From NCBI GenBank assembly GCA_016713105.1, contig JADJPS010000020.1, positions 62,278 through 126,277 on the forward strand: a DNA stretch of 64,000 nt. The letters run 5' to 3'. Source of the DNA: Devosia sp. (GTDB lineage Bacteria > Pseudomonadota > Alphaproteobacteria > Rhizobiales > Devosiaceae). Below the pieces are notes generated by a model. The model was not told the DNA's origin, did not search any database, and saw only the letters and a program-made list of their open reading frames with translations. Of the stretch, positions 21,807-26,940 are shown in pieces (within the stretch, counting starts at the first letter, position 1; every line of letters begins with the position of its first letter). The position numbers and the translations under genes are program-made.

Positions 21807-22429
21807 ATGTCAACTTCGGACCAACAGATCCGCTGCAGCTGGGCCGGCAGCGACCCGCTCTACGTGCACTATCACGATCGGGAATGGGGGCGGCCGGTCA
21901 CCGATGATGCGCGCCTGTTCGAGAAGCTGTGCCTCGAGGGCTTCCAGTCGGGTCTCGCCTGGATCACCATCCTCAGGAAGCGCGATAATTTCCGCGCCGC
22001 CTTCCAGGGCTTCGATATCGCCGTTGTCGCCGCCATGGGCGAGGCCGACATCGAGCGGCTGCTGGCGATGCCGGCATCGTCCGGCACCGCGGCAAGATCG
22101 CCTCGACCATCAACAACGCGCAACGCACACTCGAGATCCAGCGCGAGTTCGGCTCGCTTGCCGCCTATATCTGGAGTTTCGAGCCTGACGGCGGCGGCAC
22201 CGACACGGCGCCCGGTCCGATCCCCTCCGAGACGGACGCCTCGCGCGCCCTCAGCAAGGACCTGCGCCGGCGCGGCTTCAGCTTCGTCGGCCCGACCACG
22301 TGCTACGCCTTCATGCAGGCCATGGGCCTCGTCAACGATCACGCGGAGGCGTGCTGCTGCCGCGCCGGGGTCGAGGCCGAACGCGCCGCGCTTTCGCGCC
22401 CGGCGGGGCCGATGGCCGATAGGCGATAG
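21807..22429 (+). CDS. tag: DNA-3-methyladenine glycosylase I, 1-nt frameshift near 22069
   Basis: RCSWA..DPLY..YHDREWG, LEGFQSGLAWITILRKR; after the shift GIVRHRGKIAS...GFSFVGPTTCYAFMQAMGLVNDH. Confidence 0.9.
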
Positions 22430-22436
22430 CCCCGGC

Positions 22437-22577
22437 TCAGGGGCGGTAGAGCAGCAGCATCAGCAGCGCCAGCCGCGAGAGCGGGGGCAACCCCTCGTCG
22501 CGGCTTTCCCTTCGTGGCGCCCGGCGCGGCCGCTGGGGCTGGCGAGGGGCGGCAGTATCGTCTCCTGGCAATGGCAT
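22437..22577 (-). CDS. 46-aa small protein with Arg/Pro-rich N-part and hydrophobic C-end
   Basis: MPLPGDDTAAPRQPQRPRRAPRRESRDEGLPPLSRLALLMLLLYRP; preceded by the same SD-hairpin-AUG element as the two upstream genes. Confidence 0.55.
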   Translation of the reverse strand: MPLPGDDTAAPRQPQRPRRAPRRESRDEGLPPLSRLALLMLLLYRP

Positions 22578-22686
22578 GGTCGGTCCGGCGCTTCGGGCGT
22601 CCGGCTCCCTGGGATGATCGGAAGTTTGATGGCAAGGTCAGGACCCGCCCCGGCGGTGCGGTGCGGGTCCTGCGAGGCAGGCGCGG

Positions 22687-22909
22687 TCAGCGCCCGATAT
22701 CGGGCGGCAGCCCGATATCCCTGAGCAGGTGCGGCGACAGCTGGGCCGCACTGCCGGCCCGGTAGGGCCGCAGCGTGCGCCGCAGCAGCGCGTTCGCCCG
22801 CCGCTTGAGCAGGTACAGTCGGATGAGCGCGAGGAGTCCGCGGCGGATCTCGTGCTCGCTGAGTTTCGAAGGCCCGCGTCATCTCGCGGTCCCTGAAGAT
22901 CAGAATCAT
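22687..22909 (-). CDS. DUF1127-like small protein 2, probable extra A at 22864-22866
   Basis: Removing one A gives MILIFRDREMTRAFELSEHEIRRGLLALIRLYLLKRRANALLRRTLRPYRAGSAAQLSPHLLRDIGLPPDIGR (73 aa); LSPHLLRDIGL is the DUF1127 core motif. Confidence 0.7.
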
Positions 22910-22976
22910 GGCCGTGTCCGGGAATCTCCCGGTCCTCTGGCGATTGGGGCGGAACCTGCGGCAGGCGGACGGCCGC

Positions 22977-23216
22977 CTACCGGTAGTCCCAGTGACATCG
23001 GGGCTCCAGCACCTCGGGCATCAGCCCCAGGTCGCGCCGCAGGTGCGCGGGGACGGGCGGAGAGCCGCGGGAGCGGTGGTGGCGCGTCTCCCGCGCCGGC
23101 CGGGCGTTGGCCAGCATCGTCACGATGGCCGAGACCACGGCACCGGCGATGCCGGCATGGGCGTGCGAAGCACGGTTCACCCGTGCCGGCGCACGGGCGT
23201 CGAGATTGAGAGTCAT
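22977..23216 (-). CDS. DUF1127-like small protein 1 (79 aa)
   Basis: MTLNLDARAP...Arg-rich segment...PAHLRRDLGLMP. Confidence 0.7.
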   Translation of the reverse strand: MTLNLDARAPARVNRASHAHAGIAGAVVSAIVTMLANARPARETRHHRSRGSPPVPAHLRRDLGLMPEVLEPRCHWDYR

Positions 23217-23345
23217 GGTATCGTCCGGACACCTGTCGCGGGTCCGGTCCTCTGTTGTCGGAAGGCGGGATGGCAACAGGCTTCGGGCGCAGGACGCACG
23301 AAGGCGAAGCCGGTCAGGTCAGGTCGTGAGGCCAGGAGGGGCTGG

Positions 23346-23366
23346 AAGAAGACCCGCAAGCGGGTC
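23346..23366 (-). terminator. Putative attenuator terminator after the leader ORF
   Basis: Minus strand GACCCGC-TT-GCGGGTC followed by TTCTT, starting 8 nt after the leader stop. Confidence 0.55.
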
Positions 23367-23374
23367 GGCGCGCA

Positions 23375-23437
23375 TCAGGCGCGACGAAGTCCAGCACTGC
23401 AGACGCCGGGACCGGAGACGTGAACGAATTTGATCAT
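23375..23437 (-). CDS. 20-aa leader peptide (uORF) MIKFVHVSGPGVCSAGLRRA
   Basis: Strong GGGAGG SD 7 nt before ATG; follows a predicted promoter; followed by competing hairpins. Confidence 0.65.
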   Translation of the reverse strand: MIKFVHVSGPGVCSAGLRRA

Positions 23438-23475
23438 TGGTTCGCCTCCCTTGCCGTTGGCGTTGAACAGGGGTG

Positions 23476-23536
23476 CTGATAGCCCGACTCGCGCGCCGTG
23501 CCAACCCCGCATGCGACAGCCTGCCGCAGCTCATGC
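23476..23536 (-). promoter_or_regulatory. Sigma70-type promoter with upstream inverted repeat for the leader/DUF1127 operon
   Basis: -35 TTGGCA (23499-23504), 17 nt spacer, -10 TATCAG (23476-23481); GCATG-N18-CATGC at 23509-23536. Confidence 0.45.
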
Positions 23537-23636
23537 GTCAGTGTTGCCGCTTCGACACAGGTCACTTCCTTGAGTCGCAGGGGGCTTTCCGTTAGGAACC
23601 AGCCACAGATTCCGCGCACGAACCAGCAAGCAGACA

Positions 23637-25127
23637 ATGACCGACAAGAAGAAGCTCATCGCGCCGCGACTGCCGCGCGGCTTCGAAGATCGTCTGCCCG
23701 TCGACATCGCCGCCATCGACCGGATGGTGGCGAAGATCCGCCAGGTCTACGAGCGCTACGGCTTCGACCCGGTCGAGACGCCGCTGTTCGAGTATACCGA
23801 GACGCTCGGCAAGTTCCTGCCCGATACCGATCGGCCCAATGCGGGCGTGTTTTCGCTGCAGGACGACGACGAACATTGGCTGAGCCTGCGCTACGACCTC
23901 ACCGCGCCGCTCGCCCGGCATTTTGCCGAGCACTTCGACAAGCTGCCCAAGCCCTATCGCAGCTATCGGGCCGGCTATGTCTTCCGCAACGAGAAGCCCG
24001 GTCCGGGGCGGTTCCGCCAGTTCATGCAGTTCGACGCCGACACGGTCGGGGCCGCCGGCCCCGAGGCCGATGCCGAGATGTGCATGATGATGGCCGACAC
24101 CATGGATGCGCTCGGCCTCGCCGGCAAGTACGTGGTCAAGGTGAACAGTCGCAAGGTGCTGGACGGGGTGCTCGAGAGCGTCCGGCTCGCCGCCGATCCT
24201 GCCCGCAGCCTCGTGGTGCTGCGCGCCATCGACAAGCTGGACCGGCTCGGCACCGAAGGCGTGGCCCAGCTGCTCGGGCCGGGGCGCCGGGACGAGAGCG
24301 GCGACTTCACCGCCGGCGCCCACCTGACGCCCGAGGATGTGGCGAAGGTGCTGCGCTACGTGCGCGCTGAGGACGAGGGCGACCCGCTGTTCGTGCGGCT
24401 GTCCGGGCTCGTGGCCGGCACCACCCGCGGCACCCAGGGTGTCGAGGAGCTGAGGGCCATGGAGGCGCTGTTCCTTGCCGGCGGCTATGGCCCCGATCGC
24501 ATCCGCATCGACTCCTCGGTGGTGCGCGGGCTCGAATACTACACCGGCCCCGTGTTCGAGATCGAACTCACCTTCGCGGTGCAGAACGAGAAGGGCCAGG
24601 ACGTGGTGTTCGGCTCGGTGGGCGGTGGCGGCCGCTATGATGGTCTGGTGTCGCGCTTCCGGTCCGAGCCGGTGCCGGCAACCGGCTTCTCGATCGGCGT
24701 GTCGCGCCTTGCCAATGCGCTCAAGCTCACCGGCAACATGCCATCGAGCGAGCCGGTGGGCCCGGTCGTGGTGCTCGTGCTCGACAAGGACCAGACCCCC
24801 CGCTACCAGCAGATCACCGCGCGCCTGCGCAACGCCGGCATCCGGGCCGAGATGTTCATGGGCGCGAGCAGGAATTTCGGCAAGCAGGTGGCCTATGCCG
24901 ACAAGCGCAACGCCCCGGCGGTGATCATCGAGGGCAGCGACGAGCGGGCGCGCGGCGTCGTGCAGATCAAGGACCTCATCGCCGGCAAGGAGGCGGCTCG
25001 CGCCATCACCGACAATGCCGAGTGGAAGGCGGAGCGTCCCGGCCAGTTCGAGTGCGCCGATGCCGAGATCGTCGGCCGGATCGCGGCGCTGCCGGCCGTC
25101 CGCGCCTATCTGGACGACGGCAAGTGA
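23637..25127 (+). CDS. hisS: Histidine--tRNA ligase
   Basis: [57 protein letters not shown]. Confidence 0.97.
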
Positions 25128-26209
25128 AGACAGCGTCCGAGCGCTATGCGGCACTGGTGCGGCTGGTCGAGTCACGGACCGTGACGCGCGCCGAGCCGCC
25201 GCTGCTGCTGCCGGCCGCACCCTATTTCGACCTCGCCGGCGAGGAGTTCGGCCGCAACCTGCTGCTGACGACCACCAATAACGGCGTCGAGTACTGCCTC
25301 AGGCCCGACTTCACCCTGCCCATCGCCCAGCAATATCTCGAGGAGGGGCTGATCGGGGTGCCGTCGGCCTTCACCTATCTCGGCCCGATCTTCCGCCAGC
25401 TCGCCTCGACGCCGGTGGAGTTCGAGCAGGCCGGCCTCGAACTGCTGGGGCAGGCCGAGTCCGATCAGGCCCTCGACCAGGTCCTGACCTTCGCCCGCTG
25501 GGCCCTCGCGATCTACGACATCACCGCGCCCAATGTCCGGTTCGGCGGGGTCGGGCTGTTCGAGGCCTTCCTCGAGGCGGCCAATGTGCCGCCGGCCTGG
25601 CGCAGCCGCATCCGGCACCGTTTCGGCCATCCCGAGGCCCTGCAGCGGCTGATGGAACGCCTCGCCAACCCCGAGGAGCGGGTCACCGCGCCCGCCCCCG
25701 ACAGCCGCGATACCGTCATCGAGATCGTCACCGACGCCATGCTCTCGGGCGGTCTCAGCCTGATCGGCAGCCGCACCCCCGAGGAGATCGCCGACCGCTA
25801 TCTCGAGAAGCAGGCGCTGGACGCCGCACCGGTTCCCGCCGAGACGGTGGCGCTGCTGCAGGACTATCTCTCGGTTGCCGAGAGCGCCGAGTCGGCCTTC
25901 GTCCGGATCAGTTCGCTCTGCCACGAGGCCGGCTTCGATTTCGACGAGCCGCTGGGCCAGGTGCGCAACCATGCCGCGGCGCTGGCGGCGCTGTCGCCCA
26001 GTGCCGATGTCATCTTCGATGCCAGCTTCTCCCCGCGCCTCGACTACTATACCGGCATCGTCTTCGAGATGACCGGCAGCGATGGCGAGGTTCTCGCCTC
26101 GGGAGGCGAGTACGGCCGCATGCTGGAGCGCCTGGGAGCGCCCGAGCCGGTCAGCGCCTCCGGCTGCGCGCTGTGGGTCGATCGGCTGGAGCGGGAGGCG
26201 AACCTGTGA
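25124..26209 (+). CDS. hisZ: ATP phosphoribosyltransferase regulatory subunit
   Basis: [37 protein letters not shown]; GTG overlaps the hisS stop. Confidence 0.92.
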
Positions 26210-26940
26210 GCACGGTACCCGGTGGCCTCACCCTCGCAGTCCCCTCCAAGGGCCGTCTCGAGGAACTGACGCGCAAGACCTTCTCGTCCTCGCGCCTCAC
26301 CATCGCGCGCCCGGGCGGCGCCCGCTCCTACATCGGCTCGATCAAGAACCAGCCGCAGGTGACCGTCCGCTTCTACCCGGCCGCCGAGATCGCCCGCGAG
26401 TTGATCCTGGGCGGCGTCGACATCGGGGTCACCGGGACCGACCTGATCCACGAGGCGTCCGAAAACGGCGAGGAGAACGTGCTGTTCGTCCGCGGCCTCG
26501 GCTTCGGCGAGGCCGACGTGGTGGTGGCGGTACCCGATTCGTGGATCGACGTGCAGCAGATGAGCGACCTCGCCGACGTCGCCTCCGACTTCCGGGCCCG
26601 GCACGGCCGCTGGCTGCGCGTCGCCACCAAGTACGTCAACCTCACCCGCCGCCAGTTCGCCAAGTACGGCATCGCCGAATACCGCATCGTCGAGAGCGCC
26701 GGCGCCACCGAGGCGGCACCGGCCGCAGGGTCCGCCGACCTCATCGTCGACATCACCTCCAGCGGCTCGACGCTGCAGGCCAACCAGCTCCGCATCCTCG
26801 AGGACGGGCTGATCATGAAGTCCGAGGCCAATCTCATCGTCTCGCGCACCGCCGACTGGACCCCTCTCAGGAAGGCCCAGCTCGAGGCGCTGCTGTCGAT
26901 CATGGGCGGCGTTCCGCCCGGCATCTCGACGCTGCTGTAG
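26206..26940 (+). CDS. hisG: ATP phosphoribosyltransferase (short form)
   Basis: LAVPSKGRL, DIGVTGTD, LGFGEADVVVA, RVATKY, GATE...ADLIVDITSSGSTLQANQL. Confidence 0.95.
   Translation: MSTVPGGLTLAVPSKGRLEELTRKTFSSSRLTIARPGGARSYIGSIKNQPQVTVRFYPAAEIARELILGGVDIGVTGTDLIHEASENGEENVLFVRGLGFGEADVVVAVPDSWIDVQQMSDLADVASDFRARHGRWLRVATKYVNLTRRQFAKYGIAEYRIVESAGATEAAPAAGSADLIVDITSSGSTLQANQLRILEDGLIMKSEANLIVSRTADWTPLRKAQLEALLSIMGGVPPGISTLL

Follow-up and report, generated by a model that had tools for sequence, protein, structure and literature searches.

Organization of the locus

We analysed a stretch of 64 000 nt from contig JADJPS010000020.1 of a Devosia sp. genome (GCA_016713105.1), referred to below as the window, and focused on the 420 nt intergenic region between two divergent genes, hisS (23637–25127, plus strand) and a gene for a 79-residue DUF1127-like protein on the minus strand. 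On the side of the small-protein gene this region carries a 20-codon upstream open reading frame (uORF), followed by a predicted RNA three-way junction and a C-rich leader (Table 1). The uORF was found exactly as an initial annotation of the window, made from the sequence alone, had described it, with the Shine–Dalgarno sequence GGGAGG (23450–23445), a 7 nt spacer and the ATG of a 20-residue leader peptide. It occurs once in its own genome. A longer frame of 45 residues from an in-frame ATG at 23512 was rejected, as it has no ribosome-binding site and the DNA upstream of 23437 is conserved in the manner of a promoter.

No match to the uORF peptide was found in Pfam or NCBIfam, and an Rfam scan of positions 22000–24500 with E values up to 10 returned no relevant RNA family. 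From the position of the putative sigma-70-type promoter we infer a transcription start near 23470, some 33 nt before the uORF. The Sinorhizobium meliloti counterpart of this promoter, TTGCCG-N17-AAGGAT, lies ahead of a mapped start site (PMC12218461).

Table 1. Features of the uORF leader and the main gene, with positions in the window
Feature	Position	Strand	Sequence or pairing	Basis
Putative sigma-70-type promoter	23476–23504	−	TTGGCA (23504–23499), 16–17 nt spacer, CTATCAG (23482–23476)	TTGGC and TA invariant, 17 orthologs
Predicted 5′ hairpin masking the uORF ribosome-binding site	23403–23463	−		Predicted fold, 18/18 orthologs and S. meliloti
uORF, 20 codons	23375–23437	−	MIKFVHVSGPGVCSAGLRRA, then stop TGA (23377–23375)	18 orthologs with 20–21 codons, variable stop, synonymous changes
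Predicted three-way junction	23341–23395	−		Per-sequence folds and covariance-model alignment
Junction stem P1	23395–23390 with 23346–23341	−	GCUGGA (codons 15–17) with UCCAGC	
Junction hairpin P2	23383–23379 with 23373–23369	−	Stop codon in loop	
Junction hairpin P3 (GC hairpin)	23366–23361 with 23356–23351	−	GACCCG with CGGGUC, CUUG loop	
C-rich, G-poor leader, candidate Rho-loading region	23251–23340	−	Includes conserved CCUGACCUGACCGG at 23323–23310	
Hairpin-split ribosome-binding site	23214–23253	−	AGAGGA (23253–23248), CCGGAC (23247–23242), loop, GUCCGG (23230–23225), ATG (23216–23214)	
Main gene, 79-residue DUF1127-like protein	22977–23216	−	Core HLRRDLGL...HWDYR; ATG at 23216, stop at 22977	

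Conservation of the uORF

The DNA of the intergenic region is present in part of the genus Devosia. Among 18 distinct Devosia orthologs the frame comprised 20 codons (21 in two), with a GGAGG-type ribosome-binding site 6–9 nt before the start codon and a stop codon whose position was fixed and whose identity varied (TGA in seven, TAG in five and TAA in four). Synonymous changes were observed at codons 4, 5, 7, 8, 9 and 10. Two four-fold degenerate codons, GGC at codon 11 and GCC at codon 20, showed no variation at all, and rare T-ending codons were fixed. Judged by these comparisons the 20-codon ORF is real, well beyond chance, and its frame, ribosome-binding site and variable stop together indicate that it is probably translated.

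The peptide consensus was M-x-x-F-[IV]-H-V-[ST]-G-P-G-x3-A-G-[LM]-x-R-A, and the ortholog of Devosia sp. ZB163 (locus L065) reads MTMFVHVSGPGIRPAGLALA. The initial annotation had noted the absence of a run of one amino acid, which is borne out by the lack of tandem or clustered regulatory codons and of any repeated residue, and had suggested that single His or Cys codons might be sensed instead. This suggestion is unsupported because neither residue is conserved among the 18 orthologs: three of them have Phe in place of His6 and carry His at position 3, a further one has Cys at position 6 and lacks His altogether, and Cys13 is present only in this genome and one relative.

When the peptide pattern was run against 400 genomes of the order and against all species genomes, the small ORF was recovered in Devosia or Devosia-like metagenome bins only. 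The remaining matches were discarded. A single match in the 400-genome scan was chance-like, being the first part of a 69-codon frame that lacks a ribosome-binding site; those of the all-species scan that fell outside Devosia and Devosia-like bins lay inside large Planctomycetota and actinobacterial proteins; and a 14-codon frame from the same scan also lacked a ribosome-binding site and looks like chance.

The layout of the leader was found more widely than the peptide. In the Devosia subclade that shares the peptide, the distance from uORF start to main gene start was 216–231 nt (285 nt in one ortholog and 221 nt here). Other Devosiaceae genera had uORFs of 20–29 codons with unrelated peptides, placed 210–243 nt from the start of the homologous gene, and in other Devosia species, too, the peptides are unrelated but the length of the uORF, its ribosome-binding site and the spacing are retained. 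In S. meliloti the distance was 249 nt. Since the other Devosiaceae genera retain the layout with unrelated peptides, the comparison suggests that RNA pairing, and not peptide function, explains most of what appears as a conserved peptide. The invariant uORF codons are those complementary to the Shine–Dalgarno sequence, the AUG and the 5′ untranslated region (5′UTR). Three orthologs with a different N-terminus (MIHSMF...) differ in the Shine–Dalgarno–AUG spacer as well and have kept the 5′ hairpin described below. Peptide function is not needed to account for such a pattern of conservation. Within the subclade the peptide may be under some purifying selection, because mean third-position entropy is higher than that of positions 1 and 2 in codons 2–11.

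A predicted 5′ hairpin over the ribosome-binding site

In all 18 Devosia leaders the 5′UTR block ACGCCA(G) was predicted to pair with codons 10–12, the Shine–Dalgarno sequence with codons 6–8 and the AUG region with codons 4–5. For the present genome the predicted tiers of this hairpin are ACGCC from the 5′UTR with GGCGU from codons 11–12, the Shine–Dalgarno segment GGAGGCG with CGUCUCC from codons 6–8, and the AUG region with codons 4–5. An equal three-tier topology was predicted for the S. meliloti leader.

The wobble positions of codons 4–12 avoided G relative to the genome's own codon usage. Proline was encoded by CCT in 14 of 16 uORF orthologs, compared to 6 % in neighbouring genes, and glycine by GGT in 9 of 16, compared to 7 %. 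Conversely, the valine codon GTG and the proline codon CCG, which account for 61 and 50 % in neighbouring genes respectively, were never used in the uORF orthologs. Pooled over codons 2–14, the base content was 35 % C and 19 % G. This wobble bias points to selection on nucleotides.

A covarying three-way junction where the uORF ends

The last codons of the uORF and the sequence past its stop were predicted to form a three-way junction, composed of a closing stem (P1), a hairpin around the stop codon (P2) and a GC-rich hairpin (P3). In folds from codon 15 onward the junction was the minimum-energy structure in 16–17 of the 18 orthologs, with the stop codon in or next to the P2 loop, and each junction helix was represented by 11–13 distinct arm pairs across orthologs. 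The synonymous wobble of Ala15 (GCU or GCC) covaried with its P1 partner, giving nine U–A, five C–G, one G–C and one U–G pairs and no mismatches.

Plain MAFFT alignments, whether covering the entire leader or its 5′ part, gave weak consensus structures in RNAalifold because hairpins of differing sequence and shifted Shine–Dalgarno positions were misaligned; per-sequence folds and a covariance-model alignment were therefore used. The covariance model was built from five sequences and recovered nine further orthologs, 14 in total. In the resulting alignment P1 and P3 were 100 % paired, with five pairs changed on both sides, and P2 was 75 % paired in one fixed register, the lower value being due to shifts of this register between genomes. 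The covariation score of the junction was 0.29, compared to 0.16 ± 0.02 for shuffles (0/500) and at most 0.078 for slid-partner controls, in an alignment that is fitted to the model and hence biased towards the structure. That the covariation is nevertheless a real effect is argued by the slid controls together with the folds computed independently for each sequence.

P2 and P3 were also found in other Devosiaceae genera, and the closing stem P1 was seen in Devosia only. At the position of P3 S. meliloti has a 4 bp hairpin only. From these folds and alignments, the covarying junction is a new addition that lies outside the published S. meliloti model. We propose that it would fold only when codons 15–20 are free of a ribosome.

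The downstream leader and the main genes

The C-rich stretch starts after the 55 nt structured junction, the first 35 nt past the stop codon being taken up by hairpins. Its 90 nt contain 40 C and 20 G, which places it at the 99.6th percentile of C-over-G skew among 90 nt segments of the window, and the pooled leader of 16 orthologs contains 42 % C and 20 % G. A rho gene is present in the genome. A mid-leader motif, CUGAC-N-UGACCGG (23310–23323 here; 1040–1053 in the S. meliloti pSymB locus, L068), was common to Devosia, other Devosiaceae, S. meliloti and Phyllobacterium. This CUGACGUGACCGG motif is located where S. meliloti 3′ ends were mapped (transcript positions 170–190; PMC12218461).

A small hairpin was also observed in the S. 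meliloti leader itself (L068 1016–1039), made up of CGCC, AUUU and GGCG, with AUCCCC and five U behind it. It closely precedes the mapped 3′ ends and is part of the region whose deletion de-represses the downstream gene. It is different from the hairpin that was tested as the sole terminator candidate in that leader (PMC12218461). The Phyllobacterium equivalent consists of UGCC, GUUU and GGCA followed by UUUU.

The Shine–Dalgarno sequence and AUG of the main gene are set apart by a small CCGG-closed hairpin, as in split ('accommodated') ribosome-binding sites. This arrangement was invariant or covarying in all Devosia orthologs, and the homologous genes of Devosiaceae, S. meliloti and Phyllobacterium share the order of Shine–Dalgarno sequence, CCGG- or CCUGG-closed hairpin, 7–9 nt and AUG. 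The split site concerns initiation on the main genes; the uORF and junction are a separate upstream feature.

Proteins of the DUF1127 type, which are small and rich in Arg, occur widely in Alpha- and Gammaproteobacteria and have been linked to RNA turnover and stress. An RRD[IL]GLP...WD core is common to the Devosia and S. meliloti proteins. Of the loci read, all but three had an ortholog of the main gene; the exceptions were L031, in which no start site matched, L006, which is truncated at the contig end, and L008, for which the start could not be assigned. A profile search for the 79-residue protein in 90 genomes of the order, with E values up to 1e-4, returned nothing beyond its own genome, a result probably due to the short length and divergence of the protein, and the breadth of the module across Rhizobiales rests on Devosiaceae together with Sinorhizobium and Phyllobacterium plasmid records. 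A second DUF1127-like paralog was observed downstream of the 79-residue gene, at approximately 22696–22809 on the minus strand (E=8.8e-8 against the family profile). Immediately after the 79-residue gene, at 22950–22976, there is a GC hairpin (GGCGG, CCGU, CCGCC) without a U-tract, which fits an impression that gene-end hairpins here often lack U-runs.

Comparison with the S. meliloti duf1127_1 leader and with tnaC

In S. meliloti 2011 the pSymB gene duf1127_1 is transcribed from a start site 279 nt before the gene and 30 nt before sORF26, a uORF of 29 residues, and the leader represses the gene by premature termination between uORF and gene (Kothe et al. 2025, RNA Biol 22:1–16, PMC12218461). 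No intrinsic terminator was found in that leader and Rho was proposed as the terminator (PMC12218461). Attenuation requires the uORF to be translated and is abolished by synonymous, G-enriching changes in its codons 3–10, which form the first of two required elements; the second consists of the 45 nt after the uORF stop, deletion of which de-represses duf1127_1 (PMC12218461). Without a bound ribosome the first element is masked by a hairpin that comprises the ribosome-binding site and the first ten codons, and both tetracycline and chloramphenicol induce duf1127_1 (PMC12218461). For the comparison, the sORF26 peptide was taken from the supplement of PMC10117765 and the pSymB locus from NC_020560.

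The Devosia leader resembles this system in several respects. Both have a long leader, the AGAGGAGGCGU context before the uORF start, which also occurs in Phyllobacterium and many Devosiaceae, a mapped or, in Devosia, putative start site about 30 nt before a short uORF and a similar spacing between uORF and main gene. Both have a hairpin that pairs the ribosome-binding site with the first 10–12 codons, early codons that are poor in G and rich in C, a C-rich downstream leader with the shared mid-leader motif, and a split ribosome-binding site ahead of an Arg-rich small protein with an RRD[IL]GL core. In contrast, the Devosia uORF is 20 codons long where that of S. meliloti has 29, and the peptides align only loosely. 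On the Devosia side, covarying hairpins follow the stop codon directly, codons 15–17 take part in a closing stem, and the protein falls below the Pfam DUF1127 threshold. Moreover, the Devosia locus is chromosomal and adjoins hisS, whereas that of S. meliloti is on the megaplasmid pSymB.

A second point of comparison is tnaC–tnaAB of Escherichia coli, in which a ribosome that stalls on the stop codon of the uORF relieves Rho-dependent attenuation. The two share a uORF of 20–24 codons, a C-rich region past the stop and, as predicted for Devosia, in-leader termination set by the behaviour of the ribosome. However, TnaC acts via its peptide and free tryptophan, whereas the Devosia peptide is not conserved across genera and the homologous S. 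meliloti system depends on RNA sequence. The logic predicted for Devosia is also the opposite, with normal translation leading to termination.

Proposed mechanism and alternative explanations

Our preferred interpretation, to which we assign a probability of roughly 0.6 as a whole, is that this region is the leader of a small DUF1127-like operon in which a translated 20-codon uORF would report how well translation is going, and that the sORF26 leader ahead of S. meliloti duf1127_1 is its homolog, of which it would be a structurally elaborated relative. By analogy with that system, the small-protein genes downstream are very probably under the control of the uORF through premature termination of transcription. 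The suggestion of the initial annotation that the leader senses ribosome speed comes close to the demonstrated behaviour of the S. meliloti leader (PMC12218461), although the trpL mechanism put forward with it is not supported.

According to this interpretation, transcription would start about 33 nt before the uORF, and under normal conditions loading and running ribosomes would open the hairpin that pairs the 5′UTR, Shine–Dalgarno sequence and AUG with codons 4–12. Once the ribosome had passed, the G-poor codons and the C-rich leader beyond the junction would be exposed and transcription would end within the leader, the terminator probably being Rho, possibly aided by P3. When initiation or early elongation is slowed, the first element would be masked either way, by a stalled ribosome or, if no ribosome is present, by the hairpin, and RNA polymerase would read into the DUF1127-like genes. 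More speculatively, the junction might bring the two C-rich halves together or cap the 3′ end of a short attenuated RNA.

Several observations weigh against this interpretation. The logic of termination and read-through has been carried over to Devosia by homology with S. meliloti. The 79-residue protein and its Devosia homologs had no match in Pfam or NCBIfam, the S. meliloti protein alone among the proteins compared reaching Pfam DUF1127, and a profile comparison with S. meliloti DUF1127_1 gave a probability of only 65 % (E=6e-5 over 25 core columns). The stability excess of the 5′ hairpin over shuffles was modest (z-scores of −0.3 to −2.6), and covariation is unable to confirm this hairpin because its pairs are almost invariant. 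Directly after the stop codon Devosia has covarying hairpins, whereas S. meliloti has an unstructured C-rich element. Finally, only 5–12 nt separate stop codon and P3 across orthologs, so that a closely coupled ribosome that has reached the stop codon would cover the first bases of the P3 5′ arm, leaving room for a different ribosome-operated logic.

Such a logic could take the form of a junction that acts as a ribosome-operated switch absent from S. meliloti, differing from the published model or even inverting it. The junction takes in the last six codons of the uORF, and its GC hairpin would be touched by a terminating ribosome. A ribosome on codons 15–20 would dismantle the junction and ribosome release would rebuild it, so that the state of the junction would decide between hairpin-dependent termination or Rho loading on one hand and read-through on the other. 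We regard this as a tentative and rather unlikely alternative.

Alternatively, the uORF could be an independent small gene or part of a dual-function small RNA, with the 20-residue peptide or an RNA of about 130 nt having a role of its own, the junction serving as a stable 3′ end and the DUF1127-like genes being transcribed separately. The uORF's strong ribosome-binding site would be consistent with this, the junction would suit as an exonuclease-resistant end, and in S. meliloti the uORF-containing small RNA accumulates and a uORF fusion protein is abundant (PMC12218461). However, no site resembling a promoter was detected in the stretch that separates the junction from the main gene, genera and families alike maintain the distance to the main gene, uORF and gene move together as one module, and the peptide is not conserved beyond one subclade. 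Independence of the uORF from the genes downstream is thus distinctly unlikely.

The initial annotation had favoured a classical intrinsic attenuator of the trpL type, in which the last uORF codons and the sequence past the stop would take over the 5′ arm of a hairpin-plus-U terminator and the position of the ribosome would select the fold. The short leader ORF followed by a GC hairpin is indeed shared with leader-peptide attenuators such as trpL, hisL and pheL, and the specific pairing put forward, GUCGCGC with GCGCCGAC, is possible with 7 bp and one bulge. The GC hairpin is likewise present, with a 6 bp stem and CUUG tetraloop in place of the 7 bp stem described, since the latter would leave an impossible 2 nt loop. 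Its tail, UUCUUCC, has four U in the first five bases; P3 was not called by a terminator scan because only four of the next eight bases are T. In nascent RNA up to P3, with the 3′ arm of P1 still unmade, an alternative fold that includes this pairing was preferred in the present genome (−45.9 versus −43.5 kcal/mol, P3 probability 0.06) and marginally in the closest relative (−38.2 versus −37.7 kcal/mol, P3 probability 0.23), whereas P3 reached a probability of 0.74–1.0 in the 15 remaining orthologs tested. A mutually exclusive arrangement is therefore limited to this genome and, weakly, to its closest relative. Once 14 more nt are made, the junction with P3 was the best fold in all four orthologs checked, including this genome, and P2 and P3 coexisted in a 131 nt fold of its own sequence as well as in the local folds of nearly all orthologs. 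The codons involved (Cys13 and Ser14) are not conserved, there is no conserved antiterminator or run of regulatory codons, and most orthologs, like other genera, have a poor U-tract, the P3 tails of the orthologs containing one to five U in the first 6–8 bases and ranging from CUUUUU in one to almost none. Canonical hairpin-plus-U terminators were not enriched in this part of the genome, and P3, as a conserved and covarying hairpin, is best regarded as a candidate terminator. We consider a trpL-type attenuator very improbable.

Equally improbable is a ribosome-arrest peptide of the TnaC or SpeFL type, in which F-[IV]-H-V-[ST]-G-P-G, 9–16 residues from the C-terminal Ala, would cause a ligand-dependent stall at the stop codon that masks RNA: the fixed length of 20 residues, the invariant or nearly invariant Gly9, Pro10, Gly11, Gly16 and Ala20, the synonymous or conservative nature of several changes and a conserved block that would sit at the tunnel constriction with Ala20 in the P site all agree with it, but it is precisely the codons pairing with the Shine–Dalgarno sequence, AUG and 5′UTR that are conserved, the wobble bias indicates selection at the nucleotide level, and the architecture is retained around unrelated peptides in other Devosiaceae, other Devosia species and S. 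meliloti.

The hisS neighbourhood

The initial annotation had also drawn attention to the divergent hisS. This gene adjoins the module in all Devosiaceae loci examined and is thus a neighbour at the family level, but it is absent beside the same module in Sinorhizobium and Phyllobacterium, where the module is on a megaplasmid. A functional link to hisS was rejected on these grounds, and the uORF is accordingly placed with the small-protein gene.

Several features of the hisS side were observed in addition. A palindrome with perfect arms, TGCG-N-CAG-N-CTG-N-CGCA (23512–23528), is located 8 nt upstream of the putative −35 element of the leader promoter and is conserved in orthologs. It might serve as the operator of a dimeric protein that regulates both divergent promoters, that of hisS and that of the leader. 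Between the palindrome and the start of hisS, positions 23540–23617 are more conserved than the uORF and have no Rfam match. Their conserved blocks, CCGGAATCTG, GGTTCCTAACGGAAAG, GACTCAAGGAA, CTGTGTC and GCAACA, could represent the hisS promoter, its 5′UTR or binding sites. There is no obvious Shine–Dalgarno sequence for hisS. It is followed, within 23637–26940, by a HisZ-like paralog (ORF 25022–26209) and hisG (26173–26940), both named from ORF translations only, and on this reading of the ORFs the histidyl-tRNA synthetase gene would head the first step of histidine synthesis.

Implications

The S. meliloti leader is the only DUF1127 control element to have been dissected and was presented as a single case. 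Retention of its layout across Devosiaceae and Phyllobacterium offers natural variation against which the published model may be tested, namely in the pairings that are kept and the codons that avoid G. For small-protein discovery the Devosia uORF is a caution, as the apparent conservation of a peptide can result from pairing of the coding RNA with the ribosome-binding site that precedes it.

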